DNA from: an archaeon
Lineage (GTDB): Archaea > Iainarchaeota > Iainarchaeia > Iainarchaeales > Iainarchaeaceae
NCBI GenBank assembly: GCA_035289485.1
Contig: DATDXA010000063.1
Span: 1-35,044, forward strand
Direction of reading: 5' to 3'
DNA: 35,044 bases
A program made the translations under genes and the position numbers. Shown here piece by piece: positions 4,572 to 13,800 of this stretch (position 1 is its first letter; each line of letters opens with the position of its first letter). The notes beneath the pieces were generated by a model. That model saw only the letters and a program-made list of their open reading frames with translations, was not told the DNA's origin and did no database searches.

Positions 4572-5969
4572 TCATATCCGCTTAAGGAATTCAATCGCAA
4601 GCCGCAGCCCAAACCCAGTTCCATCCTTTGGCATGTAATCTTTTGGTTCGCAAATCATTGCAGTGCCCGCAACATCCAAATGTATGAATGGCACAGGGTC
4701 AGTGAATTTTGAGAGGAACGCGCCCCCGAAAATCGCGCCGTTGTTCCCGCTTTTTCCAAGAGAGCGGAAATCAGAGCGCTCGCCTGTGACCTCATCCAAA
4801 TATTCTTCCCACATTGGCATCTCCCAAACGCGCTCGTAAGTAGTTTGCCCCGCATCAAACATCTTTTCCCCGAACTCTTTCGAAGTTGACATCATCCCTG
4901 CCGCGTGCTCGCCAAGCGCGCGAACAATTGCGCCCGTAAGAGTTGAAAATTCAACAATCACTTTAGGAGTGTACTTCTTTGCGCCGTATGCAAGGGCGTC
5001 TGCAAGAATGAGGCGGCCTTCCGCATCGGTGTTTAGGTTCTCAACGGTTTTTCCGGAGTAGGATTTGATTATGTCCCCCGGCCTGTAAGCGCTTGTATCC
5101 ACAAGGTTCTCAACGCACACCATAATCCCAACAATGTTTTTCTTAAGCTTTAGTTCCGCTGCGGTTTTCATTATTCCAAGAACAGTTGCGGCTCCGGCCA
5201 TATCCATGCGCATTCCGAGCATGTAATCGCCGGTTTTAATATTGAGGCCGCCCGTATCAAAGCACACGCCTTTTCCAACGAAAAGAACCTTCTCCTTTGA
5301 GGAAGGGTTGCCATGGTATTCAATTGCAATGAGCCGCGGAGCCGCTGAACCTGCCTTTCCGACATTGAGAATTAGGTTCATTCCGAGTTTTTTTAGCTCG
5401 CGCTCGTGCAAAACATCTATCTTGAGCCTTGCCTTGCGTGAAATCCCTTTTGCAACCCTTTCAAGAAACTCAGGGGTAACAACATCGCTATTGTCCGAAA
5501 CCAGGTCCCGCACAATGAAAACATTCCTGCAGGCAACCGCCGCGGCGTGGATGAATTCTGAAAACTTCTTTGCGTATGGAGGGAAAGTGAACTTCTTCAC
5601 TCTCATCGGCCTTTCGGCTTCCTGCTTGTACTTATCAAATGAATAATTTGCAAGGTAGCCGCCCTCAAGAAGCGCAACGCAGTGCTCTGCGGAAAGGCCC
5701 TGAACGGAGAAATGAACCTCTGGGATTTTGTAAAATGAAGCGGCTTTGCACGCCCTTGCGGCGGCGCGCCTGTAATACTCAAGCTGGATTTTATCCCGCT
5801 CCCCAAGGCTTATTACAAATGCCTTTTTGTCAGGAAGAAAAATCGAATCGAATTTTTTTCCGGTAAAAGAATTCGGGATTTCTGAAAAAAGCTTCTTGTC
5901 GCCTTGGTATACAAGATGAACTAAAAGGCTGCCTTTTGTGTCTTCTGAAAAATCGTATTCTGCGTGCAT
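4572..5969 (-). CDS. pepA: Leucyl aminopeptidase (peptidase M17)
   Basis: Signature NTDAEGRL, plus GKGVCFDTGGLNIK, DMAGAA, TLTGA and HLDVAG. Confidence 0.96.
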   Translation of the reverse strand: MHAEYDFSEDTKGSLLVHLVYQGDKKLFSEIPNSFTGKKFDSIFLPDKKAFVISLGERDKIQLEYYRRAAARACKAASFYKIPEVHFSVQGLSAEHCVALLEGGYLANYSFDKYKQEAERPMRVKKFTFPPYAKKFSEFIHAAAVACRNVFIVRDLVSDNSDVVTPEFLERVAKGISRKARLKIDVLHERELKKLGMNLILNVGKAGSAAPRLIAIEYHGNPSSKEKVLFVGKGVCFDTGGLNIKTGDYMLGMRMDMAGAATVLGIMKTAAELKLKKNIVGIMVCVENLVDTSAYRPGDIIKSYSGKTVENLNTDAEGRLILADALAYGAKKYTPKVIVEFSTLTGAIVRALGEHAAGMMSTSKEFGEKMFDAGQTTYERVWEMPMWEEYLDEVTGERSDFRSLGKSGNNGAIFGGAFLSKFTDPVPFIHLDVAGTAMICEPKDYMPKDGTGFGLRLAIEFLKRI

Positions 5970-6025
5970 GATATAAAAAGAAAATCAAAGGATTTTTAAT
6001 GGATTCCACGGCCAAAAATCCTCTA

Positions 6026-7096
6026 ATGCCTCCTTTTAGCATCCAGCACACAAACGGCGCAGCAAGGGCAGGCACGCTTGCAACTGCGCACGGCAAAATA
6101 AAGACCCCATTTCTGATGCCTGTTGCAACCAAGGGTTCGGTCAAGCTCCTCTCGCACGAAGAGGTTGAAGACACAGGCACGCAGTGCATGATTGCGAACG
6201 CATTCATACTTTCAATGAAGCCAGGCACCGAAGTCATTGAAAAGCTAGGGGGATTGCACAAATTCATGCACTGGGACGGAGGTCTTTTCACGGATTCAGG
6301 AGGTTTTCAGGTTCTTAGCAAGGAATTCTGCCTTGCGCTAACTGAAAAGGGCGTGAAGTTTCGCAACCCGTTCACTGGAAAGTCCATGATTTATACTCCG
6401 GAAATGGCAATGGAAATACAAAACACGCTTGGAAGCGATGTTGCAATGTGCCTTGATGATGTTCCGAATGCCGGCGAGCCGCTTGAGAGGATAAAAGAGG
6501 CGGTGAGGCGTACGGGGGAGTGGGCGGCGCGCTGCAAGCAGGCTCACGCAAACAAAAAGCAGCTGCTCTTTGGGATTGCGCAGGGCGGCACGCACGAAAA
6601 ACTGCGAGAGCAGAGTACGAAGCAAATTATCGGGCTTGGGTTTGATGGTGTTGCACTCGGAGGCCTTTGCATTGGCGAGACAAAAAACAAAATGTATGAT
6701 GCAATCAAATCCTCAATCAGGCTGATTCCGCAGGAAACTCCTAGGTATTTGATGGGTGTTGGCTCTATTGAGGAGCTTGAGGGCGCAATTGCAATGGGTG
6801 TCGATTGCTTTGATTCGCGCTTTCCAACAATCACTGCAAGGCACGGGCGAGCGTTCAGTACAAAAGGAAACATCAACATTGATTCAGCGGTTCACAAAGA
6901 GGATTCGGCGCCGCTTGATGCGGAGTGCAAATGCTTTGTTTGCAAAAAGCACTCGCGCGCATACATCCACCATTTGTTCCGCACAAAAGAGGAGAATGCC
7001 GGCAAGTATTTGAGCTTTCATAATTTGTTTTTTGTGCAGCAGAGAATGGCGCAGATAAGGAAGCGCATTTCTGAAGGAAATTTTTTAAAAAAATAA
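6026..7096 (+). CDS. tgt: tRNA-guanine transglycosylase, short bacterial/queuine-type architecture
   Basis: Motifs TPFLMPVAT, TDSGGFQV, GIAQGG, YLMGVG, and Zn site CKCFVC...HN. About 356 aa with no PUA extension. Start ATG 6026 (or 5999). Confidence 0.93.
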   Translation: MPPFSIQHTNGAARAGTLATAHGKIKTPFLMPVATKGSVKLLSHEEVEDTGTQCMIANAFILSMKPGTEVIEKLGGLHKFMHWDGGLFTDSGGFQVLSKEFCLALTEKGVKFRNPFTGKSMIYTPEMAMEIQNTLGSDVAMCLDDVPNAGEPLERIKEAVRRTGEWAARCKQAHANKKQLLFGIAQGGTHEKLREQSTKQIIGLGFDGVALGGLCIGETKNKMYDAIKSSIRLIPQETPRYLMGVGSIEELEGAIAMGVDCFDSRFPTITARHGRAFSTKGNINIDSAVHKEDSAPLDAECKCFVCKKHSRAYIHHLFRTKEENAGKYLSFHNLFFVQQRMAQIRKRISEGNFLKK

Positions 7097-7098
7097 CA

Positions 7099-7824
7099 CT
7101 ACAAATATCTTACTTTTGATTTCCTTGCTGTGATGAGAACAAATGGCTGATTTTTAGTATCAAACTGCTCATATCTATTAAGAAGCAGCAAACCATCATG
7201 CGTTTCAAGGTTTTGTTCTGCCCTTTCTTTTAGTTTTACTTCTTTCAAGTAATCAAAAAGTTCTCTTCTAAAACTCTCTGAAGCTTGCGAACCATCACTC
7301 TGCTTAAGTTCATCTCGCCTATGCATAAATTCATCCAAAGTTTTAGCATTTTTTTCAGCCTGCGGGGTGCCGAGCCTTTTCACTTCCGCAGAAGCCATTG
7401 CTTTGGTTGTAACACCAAAGCCGTGCTGTGCAAGCTCTATTGAAATAAGTTTTCCATAGCCTTCTTCCTCTACCGTTTTGAATGTGGCTCCGGGCCTGAG
7501 TGTTCGCAATATTTGTTGGTATAATTCAACTCTTTGAGGGCGCGGAACATGCTGCAATAGGAAATGCGCATAGATATGGTCGAAACTATTTGGTTTTTCT
7601 GCCCGCAAAATATGCTGTGCCTCTAGCCCTGTTGCAATTTTCAAATTTGGAGGTATTTCAAAATGGCCTTGGCCATGCAAATATTCGCCGAGTGCACTTT
7701 TATTATGCACACGTAAATCGTTGGCAAAAAAGTTAACATCAGGATGCCTAAGCGCTAGGTCAACGGCCTTTTTCAAAATAGGCCCTTCGCCTAACCCTGC
7801 AACCCGCTTGATTTGCCTTGGCAT
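7099..7824 (-). CDS. Class I SAM-dependent methyltransferase-like orphan protein
   Basis: VAGLGEG (motif I-like), FFANDL, SFDHIYAHFLLQHV, ILRTLRPGATF; ATG 7824 (MPRQIKR). Confidence 0.65.
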   Translation of the reverse strand: MPRQIKRVAGLGEGPILKKAVDLALRHPDVNFFANDLRVHNKSALGEYLHGQGHFEIPPNLKIATGLEAQHILRAEKPNSFDHIYAHFLLQHVPRPQRVELYQQILRTLRPGATFKTVEEEGYGKLISIELAQHGFGVTTKAMASAEVKRLGTPQAEKNAKTLDEFMHRRDELKQSDGSQASESFRRELFDYLKEVKLKERAEQNLETHDGLLLLNRYEQFDTKNQPFVLITARKSKVRYL

Positions 7825-7885
7825 GCTATTGACATACCTTTCTGAGTTTATAATTTTTGCACTTTGCAAATATAATTAGATATAT

Positions 7886-8101
7886 CGCCCCCGCTGGGAT
7901 TCGAACCCAGGTCTCAAGCTCATTCCCAACCTTTTTCTTTTTCTTGGAAGAAAAAGAAAAACGTTGACGAAAAAGGAAAAAGAACAATTCCCGTTCCTTT
8001 TTCAACACTTTTCTTTTTCCCCAGGGTTTTTCTTTTCGTGTCAACGAAAAGAAAAAGGCTGGCCGGAAGCTCGCATACTATCCAGGCTATACTACGGGGG
8101 C
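7886..8101 (-). tRNA. tRNA-Arg(CCG) with canonical 37/38 intron (exons 8101-8063 and 7920-7886)
   Basis: Acceptor stem GCCCCCG/CGGGGGC with G73; D arm GTAT-AGCCTGGATA-GTAT; anticodon stem CGAGC/GCTTG with loop TT-CCG-G^A; T arm CTGGG-TTCGAAT-CCCAG. CCA is not encoded. Confidence 0.96.
7921..8062 (-). other. 142-nt archaeal tRNA intron with bulge-helix-bulge splice motif
   Basis: 5' side CGAGC|TTCC|GG^C|CAGCC pairs with 3' side GGTTG|GGAA|TG^A|GCTTG, giving a 4-bp central helix with two 3-nt bulges. Confidence 0.93.
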
Positions 8102-8210
8102 ATTACTAGATTGGCTTCGGAAAGCATTTAATCCTTCCAATTATACGGCTAAAATGCCCTTTGCATGCGCAGGGAAATGTTTTAAATATCCCGCAGGACT
8201 TATTTGTAAC

Positions 8211-8966
8211 ATGGAAAGGGACAGGATAATTGCGGTGGTTCTGATTGTTGGTTTCGTTTTCCTTGTTGCGGCACTCTTAGGGGTAGTTGCAATTACCGGA
8301 TTCATACTAGTGTTTACAGCCCCGCAGGATTCATCTCCAGCACCTTTGGATGCTGCGCCCCTTATTGAAACGGGCGATACGGATGCGGGGACAGGCAGCG
8401 GTACACCCGCGGGAAATGATGATGCGCCGGCAACTGATGAAAATCCGCCAGCAGAGCCCGCGGCGCCTGTTTGCGGCAACAACAAAAAGGAAAGCGGGGA
8501 GCAGTGCGAAACTGATTCACAATGCTCCGCCACCCAAACATGCAACAGCACCTGCCAGTGCGTAAATAAGCCGGTTGAAAAGGCCGCACTCAGGAACATT
8601 ACAATTACAAAGCTCAATTTCTGGTGCGCTCCGGATTTCAACGGCAAGAAAGGGCTTGCAATTAAGTTCATTGAATTCAAGAATTCAGGAGCAGCCTTTA
8701 CGCATGATGGGACAATCAGGATAACTGCGGTAACAGGAGAAACCACAGATTCTGTTCAGACCAATGCGGCCTTCAAGTTCAATATCCCATCTGGCAAGAC
8801 ACTTGGGCTTTACCAAAAGGACATACTAAGGGCTGATGCGCCGTACATATTCCTTGGCAGCACTCCGGACAAGACCAAAATTACGATTGACATCTCAGAA
8901 ACAGAATACATTGAGTATGAATACACCCTCAAGGGCAATGACTTCGGCTCTGTCGGATGCTTGTAA
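8211..8966 (+). CDS. Membrane-anchored surface protein with Cys-rich module
   Basis: N-terminal hydrophobic helix, acidic Pro/Ala linker, CGNNKKESGEQCE..QC....TC...CQC module, beta-rich C-terminal domain. Confidence 0.8.
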   Translation: MERDRIIAVVLIVGFVFLVAALLGVVAITGFILVFTAPQDSSPAPLDAAPLIETGDTDAGTGSGTPAGNDDAPATDENPPAEPAAPVCGNNKKESGEQCETDSQCSATQTCNSTCQCVNKPVEKAALRNITITKLNFWCAPDFNGKKGLAIKFIEFKNSGAAFTHDGTIRITAVTGETTDSVQTNAAFKFNIPSGKTLGLYQKDILRADAPYIFLGSTPDKTKITIDISETEYIEYEYTLKGNDFGSVGCL

Positions 8967-9013
8967 AGCAAATAGCTAACAAATAGGCGGATAATTTTCA
9001 AGATTGCTAAAGC

Positions 9014-9700
9014 CTACTTCTCTTCAAGGACTTTTTTGTATATCAATGCGCCGAGCAATGCACCCACAATTGGGCCGACAATGTAAATCCACAGCTGCCA
9101 GAGCGCTTCACTTGGCGCGAAGAGCTCTGAGATAAATGCAGGCCCTATTGAGCGCGCGGGGTTTAGTGAGGCTCCGGAGAATGGAATCGCAAAGAGATGC
9201 GCGGCAAGAAGGTAGAACCCTATTGCAAGCGGCGCATGGCTTGCATCGCTTTTCTTTGCAGTCACACTAAGAATAACTATAATGAAGAGCGCGGTTGCAA
9301 TTATTTCCATTAGCACAGCGCCTATTGTTCCAAACGAGCCCGCCGTGGTCGGCCCAAGGCCGGCGGAGGGCGCTATTATCCAGAGCAGGGCGCTTGCAAG
9401 CACTGCGCCAAGGATTTGTGCAATGATGTAGGGAATTGATTTAGCTTTTGGGAATTTGCCAAGCCAAGTGAGCGCAATTGTTACCGCGGGGTTGAAGTGC
9501 CCGCCTGAAACAGCGCCGAATGAATAAATGAGCACGGCAAGCGTGAGGCCCGCTGTGAGCGCAACCGGTAGAAGGTTGAATGCGCCAAAGCCTCCTGTGA
9601 GCTGCACTGAGCCTACAATAGAAGCCGTTATTGCGAAAACAAGAATGAATGTCCCGATGAATTCGGCGTAGATTTCCCTTGAATCCTTCAACTTAAGCAT
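9014..9700 (-). CDS. Aquaporin (MIP family)
   Basis: AEFIGTFILVF, SGGHFNPAVT, GASLNPARSIGPA, WIYIVGPIVGA; start ATG 9700 or TTG 9691. Confidence 0.96.
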   Translation of the reverse strand: MLKLKDSREIYAEFIGTFILVFAITASIVGSVQLTGGFGAFNLLPVALTAGLTLAVLIYSFGAVSGGHFNPAVTIALTWLGKFPKAKSIPYIIAQILGAVLASALLWIIAPSAGLGPTTAGSFGTIGAVLMEIIATALFIIVILSVTAKKSDASHAPLAIGFYLLAAHLFAIPFSGASLNPARSIGPAFISELFAPSEALWQLWIYIVGPIVGALLGALIYKKVLEEK

Positions 9701-9788
9701 CTCCAAAAGCCATGCAATTGAGCAATTAGGTGGAGAAGTGGTATTTATACCTTGTTTTTGGGAAATTTTTAGAATGCAGCGCTCGCTT

Positions 9789-10799
9789 TCACTTGTACAG
9801 CATCCCATAATACATATTCTCAACAATGCCCCAGTAAGCGACCCTCTCGCCTGTTTTCTTGTCAATTGGCATCTTCTCGCTCACAACATATTCCGGGGGG
9901 AATGCATAGTACGCAACCCTTCCCCCAAAGCCGCTTGAAACTATGAGCGGGAGCGTTCTGCCAAATCCCTGCCGCTCGGTTTTTAGCCAGAAATTCTCTG
10001 AGGAGGGGGTGCCGATTAGATTCTCGCCATAATCTAGGTATGCAAGGGCGGATTGGTATGCGCTGTCATTTTGCTTTACTATTGAAAAGTTCCCATAAAA
10101 TGGGAGCGCTTGTGAAATGCCGTTCACCAGTTCCTTATCCGTGCCGGAAATATCAAGGTGCCCAACTAGGCTTCCGTCACCCGAGCATTTCACAGTATCG
10201 CAGTAATCCGCGAGGTAATCAACACCGAGCAAGTAGTCAAATGAGAGCTGCTTGTTTCCAACCTTTCTCGCCCACGGGCCAATGTAATCTGGCGAGCCGC
10301 CGGATTTTCTCTCCGAGTATTTGAGGAAATAATTGAGATCGCTTTCAGTATCAGGTGCAACAGTGCCGGCATCGCCAATCCATACGAGCTTTCCGCCGCG
10401 GTTGACATAATCCTCAAACATTTTCAGGTCCTCAATGCCCATGACACGCGCTCTTTCAACTATCACAATCTGGCTTTCCATTAAAACTGGCAGGGACACG
10501 ACCTGCATATCCTTAAGGGCAACCCTTGCACTGAAGTGCGGGGATTTGAGCACGTCATAGAGATGCTCAGGGTTGCCCATTCCTGATTCACCGTGCACAA
10601 TAAGGACTTTTGGCTTTCCTCCCGCGACAAGCGAGTAGTAAACATCACAAACCACAGGATGGACAGAATTGCACGGCACCGCCCTAAAATAAATCAGAAC
10701 GCCAAGCAGTGCGAGAAGCAACACAACAAGTATGCCAATTTGAAGCAAATAATTCTCTTTTCTTGCAGGCACTGCTGCAGCCGGTTCTGGATATGCCAT
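9789..10799 (-). CDS. Membrane-anchored extracellular protein, possible GATase-like/beta-galactosidase-trimerisation-type fold
   Basis: One N-terminal TM helix; segments EDYVNRGGKLVWIG and GGRVAYYAF are typical of that fold (fold call tentative). Confidence 0.7.
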   Translation of the reverse strand: MAYPEPAAAVPARKENYLLQIGILVVLLLALLGVLIYFRAVPCNSVHPVVCDVYYSLVAGGKPKVLIVHGESGMGNPEHLYDVLKSPHFSARVALKDMQVVSLPVLMESQIVIVERARVMGIEDLKMFEDYVNRGGKLVWIGDAGTVAPDTESDLNYFLKYSERKSGGSPDYIGPWARKVGNKQLSFDYLLGVDYLADYCDTVKCSGDGSLVGHLDISGTDKELVNGISQALPFYGNFSIVKQNDSAYQSALAYLDYGENLIGTPSSENFWLKTERQGFGRTLPLIVSSGFGGRVAYYAFPPEYVVSEKMPIDKKTGERVAYWGIVENMYYGMLYK

Positions 10800-10896
10800 T
10801 GGACTAAGATTAAATTTGAACACCTAAATAAGGGTTTCTGTTAACAAAATGCGGCGCACGCAAGAGCAATGCGGGTTTTTTGGCATGCCGCCCTAA

Positions 10897-13800
10897 TTAT
10901 TTGGCGAAGCATGCATTGAGATTCAAGGAGGAATTGGAAATCTTCTCGCGCAGGCTTTTGAGGAACTTCTCCTCGTTCCACCATATGCCAATTGCCTCGG
11001 CTGAAACTGAGCTTCCGGATAAGGCGATGCATGTGGCGCTTGTATCTATTGCCTCGATTGCCTTTGCAATCGTATTCATTGCATTCGCGGGCCTTGAAAG
11101 CGCGAGCGCTGGCGAGGAGGAAATCACTTTGGAAAATCCCGTTACGCTACCATCATCCGAAAGCTGCCCGACATATATTGCGCCCTGGTTTTGGCAGGCG
11201 TTTTGTATCTGATAAACCGTGCTGCCTGCTGGAACATAATAAATTGATTCGTAGTAAATGTTCGCATCCACCGCGGCGCTGTTCGAAATCCCATAAATCG
11301 CAGTCTCGGGGATCCCGGATTTTACCGCGCACCATGTGCCCGAAGACGGCTTTTTGTAATCTGTCGGCAATGGAGCTGGAAGCGCCTTTCCATTTGCCGG
11401 CGGGTCAAGGCACTGTACGCCGCCTGTTTTTCCCTTATGGCCTATTTCTGTCACTCTTGCCGAATAGGTCCCGAAATTTATTCCGCCTATGCCCTGCTTT
11501 AGAAGCTCGTACGATACAACATTCGAAGACCCGTTGCCCTGCCCTTCAAATACAACAGGCACGGGGTTTGCTGCATAGAACTTCAAAGTGTACCTATTAG
11601 TTGTTCCTGAATCCTTTGAAATGCTAAGGAGCTGGCCAGCACTATTTACGGTCGTGTCAATGAAATCGTCATGAACCTGCACATTTACAAACGCAACAGG
11701 CCTTGATGCGGCTGATGCTGCCGCAGTCCACACGGTTGCATCGGCTTCGCCGGTAACTTCGGCCCATTTCACATTCCTGCCGGCAAAGCCGACTCCGTAG
11801 CCATCACGGTGCATGCTCTCTCCGGATAGCCCGAGCTGGCCGTCTATTGGCAGATCATAAAGCACATTCGGCTGCAGGATGCTGATTTTTCTGAAATCCA
11901 CAGTAATGGTTGCTTGCGGCTCATTTTGGAAATCAAAAAACATGAAATCTGCCCCTGTTGGGAAATCAATGCTGAGCGTGACCTCATAAACGCCGGCTTC
12001 GTGAATTCCCTTTGCGGCATCAGGGTTCCCATTAGATTCAATCTTGAAGCGTGCGGGGTTTTCAAAGTACTTTCCCCATTTGGAATAATTCAGCCCATCG
12101 GCAAAGAACCTGCTGGCGGCATATGAATCAAAGTCCGCCCTGAAATCGTCCGAAAAGCCATCGCGCAGCATATATGCCCTGAAGTTCTGGAGCTTGAGAT
12201 TTGCTTGGTCCTGCTTTCCTGCTTTCGCGAGCTGGTCCGCCGCATCGAGCCTTTTTAGGAGCGCGGTCATGAACTGCGCCGAATCGCACACCGAGTAATC
12301 CGCATTTCCAAAGTCGCATTCATTGTCAGATATTGCAGATGCGCGCCAGTCATATTTCACGTGCGGCTTTGCAATCTCGCCCGTAAGGCCTGAAGAGTCG
12401 CCCTGCAGGTCGCGGCACATGCCAACAGCACCGCCCTTGACCCCGAAAATGTACTTTTCAGTGTCAACCCAGAGCAGGTTCACGTCAAGATGCGGATAAT
12501 TGGATCCCGGAGCTGATTCCAAATAATCGGTGCGCGCGAAAACCTCTGCCTTGCCATCAACAGCGGATTTTACGACAAAAAGGCTTGTGCTATCATTGAA
12601 AATTTCGGTGAGTGGCCCGGCAGCTGACCTTGAATTCGGGGCGCTGCCAACAGTTGCATTTATGAGCGCGAACACAGGCTCGCCCGCTCCTGCCACAGAG
12701 GGCGCCTGCATGGAATATGCGCCGAGCTTTTTTGTCCTGTCGAAAACATTGACAGTGGCATTCTGCACAGAAGTTGAAGAGCCCGCCACAACAGACTGCG
12801 AGCCAAGGCTCACTGCACCGCCTTCCGTTACAATGCTCTCACCTGGAATAGTGTTCGCTGCGGGGTCGAATGAAGTGCCAAGCTTTGCAAAGTCTCTGCC
12901 CGCAACGCTTCCGACATTTCCTGTGACCACAAGAGTATAGGGCCCGCCCTTTTGCGCAGTGAAGCTGAAAAGCGCCCCATCAAGGTCATTTTCAGCAAGG
13001 TCAGCTGGGTCAGAACAGCTTGCAACCGCAAAAGAATCCGCGCTGTCCGGCTCCTCGCCAACCTCTAAGGGAATATCCGGAGTTTCGCCAATCACCTGCG
13101 CGCCGGTCCCGCTCGCGCCATCAAATACAACTGCAGATATGCTTGTGCCACCAAAGAGAGGGTTTCCTGCCCCATCGGCGCAAACCTGCAGGTAATATTT
13201 TGTGTTTGGAATCGCATTGAACTGCACCATCTTCGTGAAAGGGGAAAGCGCAATCGCCTGCACCTGATAGCTCACTGCCTGGTCCACGGGCTTCTTGCCT
13301 GTTGCCGTGTCTATTTCATCGCCGTCCAGCTTGGTTTTGTATTTCACGTTGATTGAAAGCTTCTGCTCATATGGCGAAACAGGTGGCGCGTACGCCGAAA
13401 ACTTTTCCTGGATTACATTTGTCCCGTGAGGCGGAATTATTAGTGGCGACTGGGGCGTTGCTGTAAAGTAGGGGAAGCTGCAGCTCTCAAGCAGCACATC
13501 TCCAGTCCTCTGGCAGTTGATGTCATCAACTGATGTGATGTATAGCGGTGTTTGCCCGGGATTTTTTAAAACCCATGCAAGCGTGTTTTCCACAGGCTCT
13601 GTTCCATAAACGCTTCTTTTTACCCCGATTGAGTTCAGGTTTGGCGGAATGATTTCGAGCTGCCCGCCCAGAACAATCACGTCGAATTCCCTGAAGGTTG
13701 CCCACTCGCTTGCATTTATGGTTGTTGCATATTCAATGCGCAGATGGTATGTTCCGGGGAGCGTGAACTTGAAATCAGGGAGCCTGTCTTCAGTTCCGTG

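Follow-up and report, generated by a model that had tools for sequence, protein, structure and literature searches.

The window analysed here is a stretch of 35,044 nucleotides (nt) from a DPANN archaeon of groundwater-type metagenomes with a genome of 1.16 Mb, and the feature under study is a tRNA-Arg(CCG) gene on its minus strand (8101..7886) together with the intron of 142 nt that interrupts it. In the following this genome is called G000 and its contigs carry C-numbers, while G-numbers refer to the genomes of its taxonomic family (23 including G000). When introns were allowed, ARAGORN reported the gene as tRNA-Arg(ccg), c[7885,8102], with an intron of 142 nt. The cloverleaf and its boundaries were read from the sequence, with G1 at 8101 and the discriminator at 7886. 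The 5′ exon spans 8101..8063 and the 3′ exon 7920..7886; CCA is not encoded. A candidate promoter box (GATTAAATG; 8127..8135, minus strand) was noted ~30 nt ahead of the tRNA 5′ end; by eye it is similar to YTTTTAAA-type boxes upstream of tRNA genes of the same genome that are free of the repeat module described below. The gene was missed both by ARAGORN with default settings (0 genes) and by Rfam at the gathering score (0 matches). Since standard finders miss such tRNA genes, they can inflate the counts of 'missing' tRNAs in DPANN genomes, and censuses will undercount them.

A long intron with a canonical splice motif

The intron (7921..8062, minus strand) lies at position 37/38 and forms a canonical 3-4-3 bulge-helix-bulge (BHB) motif, in which both cuts fall after the second base of a bulge. 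This motif was read by hand because it was drawn neither in the minimum free energy (MFE) structure nor in the centroid; the ViennaRNA centroid has a 5x5 internal loop at this place, as energy folding of BHBs usually gives. In the hand reading, CGAGC/GCUUG forms the anticodon stem and U32U33C34C35 pairs with GGAA in the central helix; the bulges are U G^A38 (3′) and G36 G37^C (5′). The inner helix CAGCC/GGUUG continues into the U/A arms of the intron. Both inner and central helix depend on the 3′ end of the intron, GGUUGGGAAUG (7921..7931, minus strand): its GGUUG pairs with CAGCC (8061..8057), and its GGAA pairs with U32-C35 of the anticodon loop, the latter being kept in G002 and G005. The genome encodes EndA (PF01974, G000:C20:6508-6768, 94.9 bits) as well as RtcB (PF01139, C60:3216-4529, 569 bits). 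Presumably, the intron would be cut out by the former and the exons joined by the latter. The 142-nt intron (8062..7921) with its BHB had been proposed in an initial annotation made from the sequence, which is in agreement with these results. Archaeal tRNA introns usually measure a few tens of nt. With respect to position, 3-4-3 motif, complete exon cloverleaf and the pair of EndA and RtcB, the gene resembles the canonical introns at 37/38 reviewed in PMC4090602. It differs from these in its 142 nt, which are almost wholly a dispersed repeat.

The intron is composed of two inverted copies of a module of ~56 nt, which were located by sequence reading and with a covariance model (R1) built from 33 copies. 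Copy 1 (8006..8056, minus strand) adjoins the 5′ splice site in what we call 'trailer' orientation. On the RNA strand it consists of a pyrimidine (Y) arm (8056..8044), a loop (8043..8040), a purine (R) arm (8039..8027), the spacer CCCUGGGG (8026..8019) and a mirror R arm (8018..8006), and it is the best R1 match of the genome (8005-8060, 76.4 bits). Copy 2 (7932..7985, minus strand) adjoins the 3′ splice site in 'leader' orientation. Here a third (Y) arm with one extra C (7985..7970) and the spacer CGUCAACG (7969..7962) are followed by a Y arm (7961..7949), a loop (7948..7945) and an R arm (7944..7932); the R1 match covers 7928-7983 on the minus strand (71.9 bits). Between the copies lies a central linker (7986..8005, minus strand), delimited from the MFE structure and the inverted repeats.

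The two perfect 13-bp stems with 4-nt loops that the initial annotation had described (7932-7944/7949-7961 and 8027-8039/8044-8056) were found exactly where claimed. In the MFE structure, the outer arms of both copies are complementary over ~16 bp, and a purine run of the linker pairs with the third arm of copy 2. The latter pairing is the central stem of the initial annotation, which stands at 7969-7978/7994-8003; the proposed GTTGA/TCAAC extension was only roughly right, as it has a small bulge and a two-base overlap with the stem. The entire intron is an inverted repeat with 54-nt arms that are 78% complementary, and it holds five T5 runs in sense. Its MFE of -53.7 kcal/mol was reached by none of 200 dinucleotide shuffles (-33.9 +/- 4.0 kcal/mol; z -5.0). 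Neither a C box (RUGAUGA) nor a D box (CUGA) was found in a motif search of the intron, as had been noted before, and Rfam gave no match, which argues against an intron-borne C/D box sRNA.

A sequence of this kind might also be explained by low-complexity DNA that arose by chance, or by local misassembly of repeat-rich DNA. The repeat does fragment assembly graphs, and no single Logan contig spans the 801-nt stretch 7600-8400. However, this stretch is tiled by overlapping Logan contigs from four DNA metagenome runs which agree base for base in long pieces (7600-7915, 7892-8038 and 8029-8400 in run X1; 7892-8056 and 8029-8174 in run X3, from another study), the overlaps being short because the repeat breaks the assembly graph. 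No sign of the misassembly that the initial annotation had considered was seen in the contigs of these four runs. Moreover, near-identical introns of 140 and 148 nt occur in the assemblies of two other species, and the z value of -5.0 speaks against chance. We regard the probability of this explanation as close to nil. In all four runs, a low-depth contig (depth ~3-4) was observed that joins 7920 to 8063 without the 142 nt, the shorter side being 22 letters. Its likely source is a related organism in which, as in G001, the gene lacks the intron.

A dispersed three-arm module at tRNA boundaries

The organisation of the module was read from the flanks of all 43 ARAGORN tRNA genes of the genome. 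Behind tRNA 3′ ends the trailer starts with (A)ACC, followed by a pyrimidine arm of the T5CT4 type, a 4-nt loop, the complementary purine arm, an 8-nt near-palindromic spacer (CGTTGACG, CCCCGGGG and similar) and a second purine arm. The leader before tRNA 5′ ends is the reverse complement of the trailer and ends with GGTT a few bases before +1. The arms are 11-13 nt long, A/T-rich and of the T5CT4 / A4GA5 type. A BLAST search of the intron against its own genome, which had been suggested as a check for further copies, gave 79 matches. R1 gave 51 matches at E <= 0.01, corresponding to 32 distinct full-length places; this count leaves out one full-length match that overlaps another on the opposite strand.

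In 21 of these 32 copies the end of the hairpin lies within 7 nt of a tRNA boundary, compared to 0.77 expected for random placement in the 67 kb outside long open reading frames (ORFs). Eight are found at tRNA 3′ ends, eight at tRNA 5′ ends and five at intron positions, the latter in the four introns of tRNA-Arg-CCG (twice), Pro-CGG, Leu-CAA and Tyr. The eight copies in leader orientation end 1-4 nt before the tRNA 5′ ends, and T5 starts 3-5 nt behind the eight tRNA 3′ ends. All this placement follows one rule: the hairpin is directed toward the tRNA or exon and the third arm away from it. The initial annotation had taken the element to be sheltered in a tRNA intron. In this respect it has to be corrected, as the hairpin end abuts tRNA processing sites in general. 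In this genome, tRNA-Glu(UUC) is the only tRNA with both a leader and a trailer module. Pairing of leader and trailer across a tRNA is not indicated, as in a relative with such pairs their arms are out of register.

Of the remaining 11 copies, several start directly after an ORF stop codon and one precedes a thermosome-like gene, both according to a crude ORF call; one adjoins the 16-nt near-duplicate at tRNA-Gln described below. A further one, of trailer type, is located ~17-21 nt behind the 3′ end of the 23S rRNA (L029:304-358, G000:C2), with the RNase P RNA 780 nt beyond. When 10 module loci were searched with Rfam at E <= 0.01, only the 23S rRNA end, the RNase P RNA and two tRNAs were detected.

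Several loci show modules in more complex arrangements. Upstream of tRNA-Gln(UUG) (L033:404-475, G000:C52:803-874) a module lies behind a 16-nt near-duplicate of the 5′ end of this tRNA, giving the order tRNA fragment, trailer-type module and full tRNA; this layout may be a scar of recombination or duplication. Modules at L034:301-371, L035:311-386 and L036:606-663 (G000 contigs C5 and C29) contain a second palindromic element of ~55 nt that is unrelated to them (GCAAACC...GGTTTGC type), as does the tRNA-Arg intron of G021 (L053). It is nested either in the spacer or between purine and third arm, and the module spacer may be an insertion hot spot. At L036:200-340 (G000:C29:52800-52940), tandem short modules with a 7-bp hairpin, a spacer and an A-run alternate with repeated copies of a gene tail.

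The third arm repeats neither hairpin arm in direct or inverted form but mirrors the purine arm. Read on the complementary strand, a pyrimidine arm is followed by the spacer, a second pyrimidine arm, the loop and the purine arm; the first of the pyrimidine arms is parallel to the purine arm, with T aligned with A and C with G over 11-13 positions. Therefore this Y-Y-R strand can fold as a T.A-T / C+.G-C triple helix, and to judge from its sequence the Y-R-R strand can form the purine-motif counterpart. The position of the interrupting C/G varies among copies (at least seven run-length classes) and shifts in all three arms together. When the run lengths of the third arm and the purine arm were compared in 51 unique modules, they agreed only in parallel in 35 and only in antiparallel in none, six being symmetric and ten fitting neither, of which several are parsing errors. 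Exact concordance was observed in 41 of the 51, the mean of 2000 shuffles being 9.6 and their highest value 18. With 77 modules, 21 of them from other families, the parallel alignment was better in 67 and the antiparallel in three, with seven ties, and parallel matches totalled 1004 versus 852 +/- 8.7 when the third arms were permuted. The hairpin itself is 93.1% paired, 5 of its 12 pairs are changed on both sides and none of 500 shuffles reached the observed score. The check by fold and covariation proposed in the initial annotation was thus positive for the hairpin as well as for the three arms. Because templated copying cannot produce mirror repeats, each run-length class needed coordinated changes. 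Taken together, the alignments indicate that all three arms co-vary as Hoogsteen triples require, and such three-way covariation argues more strongly that a three-stranded fold is under selection than one consensus sequence could. The plain palindrome of the initial annotation does not describe the unit, whose hairpin is joined by a third arm in mirror repeat, as is characteristic of intrastrand-triplex repeats.

The closest known kind, by sequence organisation, is that of the bacterial PIT/BoxC/TMECO intrastrand-triplex repeats, which have been described in E. coli and other bacteria (Holder et al. 2015, PMC4666352, main text; Hoyne et al. 2000, 2002, cited therein). According to the main text of that study, these repeats share with the archaeal module the order of pyrimidine stem, loop, purine stem, loop and mirror purine stem, with a complementary class on the other strand. 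They likewise occur as tens of dispersed non-coding copies per genome, some of them as inverted pairs, a form that the module takes in this intron and in introns of relatives. Their copy number also differs strongly between close relatives and their loci are variable between strains, and neither those repeats, as presented there, nor the archaeal module has an assigned function. On the other hand, the module is A/T-rich and TMECO is G/C-rich (CCCTCNCCC), and the two have no sequence relationship. The second connector of the module is an 8-nt near-palindrome, compared to the 1-6 nt searched by ITxF according to the same text. The module further differs in that it is archaeal and tied to tRNA 5′ and 3′ ends and to splice sites, also inside BHB introns; in the main text of PMC4666352, as distinct from its supplementary per-genome motif tables (archaea included), the word 'tRNA' is absent. 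The module has the PIT/BoxC/TMECO design but is a different family by descent.

The strand that is transcribed bears on whether the module works as RNA. The Y-Y-R strand would then be a self-contained U.A-U / C+.G-C triple helix, with the strand order of the MALAT1/MEN-beta ENE+A, which we take to be a U-rich Hoogsteen strand, a connector, a U-rich Watson-Crick strand, a loop and an A-rich strand. A leader module 2-7 nt before the tRNA +1 would stay at the 3′ end of the leader after cleavage by RNase P, as in MALAT1/mascRNA, and intron modules would make the excised, circularised RNA unusually stable. A stable structured circular RNA was the second suggestion of the initial annotation; a search for RNA runs that contain window positions 5000-11000 returned none. 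This explanation agrees with the Hoogsteen geometry of the three-arm covariation, with the leader copies that end 1-4 nt before tRNA 5′ ends and with the presence of an RNase P RNA in the genome. RNA is reported to form pyrimidine-motif intrastrand triplexes in the main text of PMC4666352, and the MALAT1 arrangement is described in the corresponding sections of the review PMC7583470. As there, two U-rich segments and an A-rich one, interrupted by C+.G-C, are present on the Y-Y-R strand, and the eight leader copies lie directly upstream of the RNase P site. However, about half of the module copies face the other way. The sense strand is Y-Y-R in nine copies (eight leader copies and one intron copy) and Y-R-R in 12, namely the eight trailers and four of the five intron copies, so that an ENE-type RNA triple helix, which would call for a fixed orientation, was rejected. 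Purine-motif triplexes are reported not to form in RNA in the relevant passages of both PMC4666352 and PMC7583470. In addition, the rule that the hairpin end faces the tRNA is symmetric in DNA, and G.U tolerance on the sense strand showed no asymmetry (11 G.U versus 9 C.A, with detection differing between the strands). The host is also an archaeon, and the word 'archaea' is absent from the review PMC7583470. We therefore regard a function of the module as RNA as unlikely.

The positions next to tRNA genes would also fit a transcription signal. In this case the oligo-T first arm would be a terminator, the two T-tracts on the other strand would stop incoming polymerases and act as an insulator, and leader modules would fill the interval from TATA to start with their third arm and spacer. 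Module-free tRNA genes indeed have T5-T7 tracts where trailer modules begin with (A)ACC-T5, and some copies start right behind ORF stop codons. T/A-rich boxes ~20-30 nt upstream of the hairpin were seen by eye in several leaders and are absent in others. However, 1535 sense T5+ runs are located inside the 558 ORFs of at least 250 amino acids, and a T5+ run follows within 60 nt after the stop in only 168 of 553 such ORFs. T5 alone therefore appears to be no efficient terminator here. The frequency of T5 inside ORFs would remove the apparent paradox of the five sense T5 runs inside an intron whose gene has conserved exons and BHB, runs which themselves speak against a terminator, and with it most of the case for expression of the gene in two halves, which is discussed below. 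Besides, a terminator needs neither a hairpin nor a mirror third arm, E. coli PIT elements are without promoter or terminator activity according to the main text of PMC4666352, and modules come and go at orthologous sites. It seems quite improbable to us that the module is a transcription signal of tRNA genes.

Intron states and module turnover among relatives

Matches to the module were found in 22 of 22 other genomes of the family, and at least one R1 match in 53 of 101 sampled genomes of the order. The number of R1 matches per genome ranges from 2 to 42 in seven sampled family genomes and is lower elsewhere in the order. At 19 loci from relatives the modules adjoin tRNAs or sit in their introns. 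In other families of the order, a tRNA is present within the ~360-nt locus around the module in 13 of 16 loci, and those inspected abut the module or hold it in an intron. Double-module introns recur in relatives, in tRNA-Pro-CGG (138 nt), Leu-UAA (127 and 135 nt) and Ser (121 and 156 nt). In G008, which belongs to another genus, two tandem leader-type modules fill the 120 nt upstream of +1 of tRNA-Cys (L014:1502-1612), which raises the question of where its promoter is located. We also noticed that ARAGORN with introns mislabels several module-bearing tRNAs in relatives, reporting for example Leu-UAA as Val-tac and Arg-CCG as Gly-ccc.

Orthologues of the tRNA-Arg(CCG) gene were anchored on the adjacent TGT gene, which was found in 20 of 23 genomes. 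The gene has no intron in G001, a module-free intron of 41 nt in G003 and one of ~23 nt (hand reading) in G010. One module is present in the 103-nt intron of G006, and two modules fill the introns of G002 (140 nt), G000 (142 nt) and G005 (148 nt). In G021 the intron reaches 186 nt, its spacer holding a nested copy of the second palindromic element. Short and long introns have similar ends where the BHB is formed, as would be expected if modules had been inserted into the loop of an older intron. A similar series was obtained for the syntenic tRNA-Leu(UAA). Here an intron is lacking in G000, G007, G012 and G022, and introns without module are found in G019 (19 nt), G015 (38 nt) and G010 (71 nt). 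G001 carries a collapsed remnant of 38 nt, G005 one module in 71 nt, and G006, G004 and G003 two modules in 123, 127 and 135 nt, respectively. The states of the Arg and Leu introns are uncorrelated across genomes; the changes are therefore recent and occurred site by site. None of the inspected orthologues shows the creation of an intron by a module. The last bases of each intron complement the anticodon loop of its own tRNA, a match that would not come with a generic element.

These orthologues also bear on the idea that the gene is expressed as two halves, as in Nanoarchaeum, or that the intron is a fusion scar of half genes. In the former case, transcription would end within copy 1 and begin anew ahead of copy 2, and the arms would pair in trans to build the BHB for trans-splicing. 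The intron does join sequence of the tRNA-3′-flank type to sequence of the tRNA-5′-flank type of the same genome, its outer arms are complementary over ~16 bp, and double-module introns recur in several tRNAs. However, in every genome seen, including all 8 with the Arg orthologue, the two halves lie side by side and in line, the linker contains no YTTTTAAA-type box, and T5 appears to be a weak stop signal here. The orthologues with short module-free introns or one-module introns point to stepwise insertion instead of fusion. Split tRNA genes of the Nanoarchaeum type were therefore rejected, and we consider both forms of this idea very unlikely.

Origin of the intron modules

We think it likely that the intron of tRNA-Arg(CCG) is a canonical one enlarged by two inverted copies of a lineage-specific, dispersed repeat of PIT design that is placed at tRNA cut sites. 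The two ~56-nt copies would have entered an older, shorter intron, in which they would be passengers that are discarded together with it. Their outer arms are predicted to pair, which would extend the inner BHB helix. Selection for the three-stranded fold would act on single-stranded DNA, where either strand can fold, and not on intron RNA, because modules occur in both orientations to transcription and their placement rule is symmetric at the DNA level. The repeat would spread by some DNA-level process.

Several observations weigh against this explanation. No mechanism of spread was found, and target-site duplications were not seen at the inspected junctions (by eye, not in a formal test). 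Genes for Y1 transposases (PF01797) are present in only 9 of the 23 family genomes, and a module was found by R1 near such a gene in only 1 of 18 loci, numbers that come from incomplete assemblies. The precise junctions (0-7 nt) and the conservation across the order could instead reflect a function in tRNA expression or processing. The copies are related, so that the shuffle statistics given above overstate their independence. Triplex formation itself is predicted from the arms, and for the E. coli relatives in vivo footprinting gave no support for a stable triplex, as stated in the main text of PMC4666352. In copy 2, the third arm has an extra C and is predicted in the MFE structure to pair conventionally with the linker. 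Finally, the tRNA lies beside TGT in 7 of the 20 loci, plus one on a contig end, and the ortholog series therefore comprises eight genomes.

The initial annotation had suggested a MITE/REP-like palindromic element in a tRNA intron. This holds in so far as the module is a dispersed family with at least 32 full copies whose presence differs between orthologues. Like REP/BIME-RAYT elements and miniature inverted-repeat transposable elements (MITEs), it is a short, structured, dispersed non-coding repeat, and it has a second palindromic element nested in it. The double module has inverted ends, and single modules also occur alone. It departs from the suggestion in the three-arm unit, in the lack of visible target-site duplications and of linkage to Y1 genes, and in that no autonomous partner was identified. 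A mirror third arm is, to our knowledge, not a feature of REPs or MITEs. A REP mobilised by a RAYT (Y1) was accordingly rejected on the 1 of 18 loci with a module in these incomplete assemblies. In G000, an IS200/IS605-type Y1 transposase gene is cut by a contig end (L060:1500-1683, G000:C40:8017-8184), and no module was detected in its upstream 1.5 kb.

In a more far-reaching form, the module would be a mobile DNA element whose three-stranded fold is the recognition structure and which homes to tRNA 5′ and 3′ ends and to both splice sites. We put this forward tentatively and hold it to be rather doubtful. If true, such an element would supply raw material for the growth of tRNA introns in DPANN archaea, and possibly for their origin, splitting and loss, and it would offer a concrete, testable route for the turnover of archaeal tRNA introns. 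A pattern scan of putative viral contigs (IMG/VR) gave nine loci, of which ~4 look like true three-arm modules (three related contigs and one other; L179-L181 and L183) and the others like simple A/T runs; none of these candidates has a tRNA alongside, and they are too few for any conclusion.

tRNA intron transposition was reportedly described in Thermoproteales by Fujishima et al. in 2010. The present case is similar in that intron sequence is common to different tRNAs of one lineage and that gain and loss are rapid. It differs from it in two respects, as the module also occurs outside introns, at the ends of tRNAs, rRNA and ORFs, and as it is a defined three-arm unit that enlarges existing introns. 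In the part of the preprint 10.64898/2026.10.13.758758 that treats this subject, the transposition in Thermoproteales serves as 'positive control', and how archaeal tRNA introns arrive is said to remain open. In the present case, what fills the long introns is also recognisable outside them, with a strict placement rule at tRNA cut sites, and the states with no intron, a short intron, one module and two modules can be followed among species of one genus for two tRNAs. In addition, intrastrand-triplex repeats, so far bacterial and without known role, are extended to archaea. A published description of this archaeal module was not found in the literature searched, which covered sources other than subscription journals and supplements.

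The TGT gene next to the tRNA (window 5999-7096, plus strand) is of the bacterial type. Its product is 39-47% identical to bacterial Tgt, and few archaeal records are closer, so that a lateral transfer of TGT into this DPANN lineage is possible, judging from these similarities. The nearest named records of the neighbouring gene are from unclassified archaea, Woesearchaeota and Nanobdellota.

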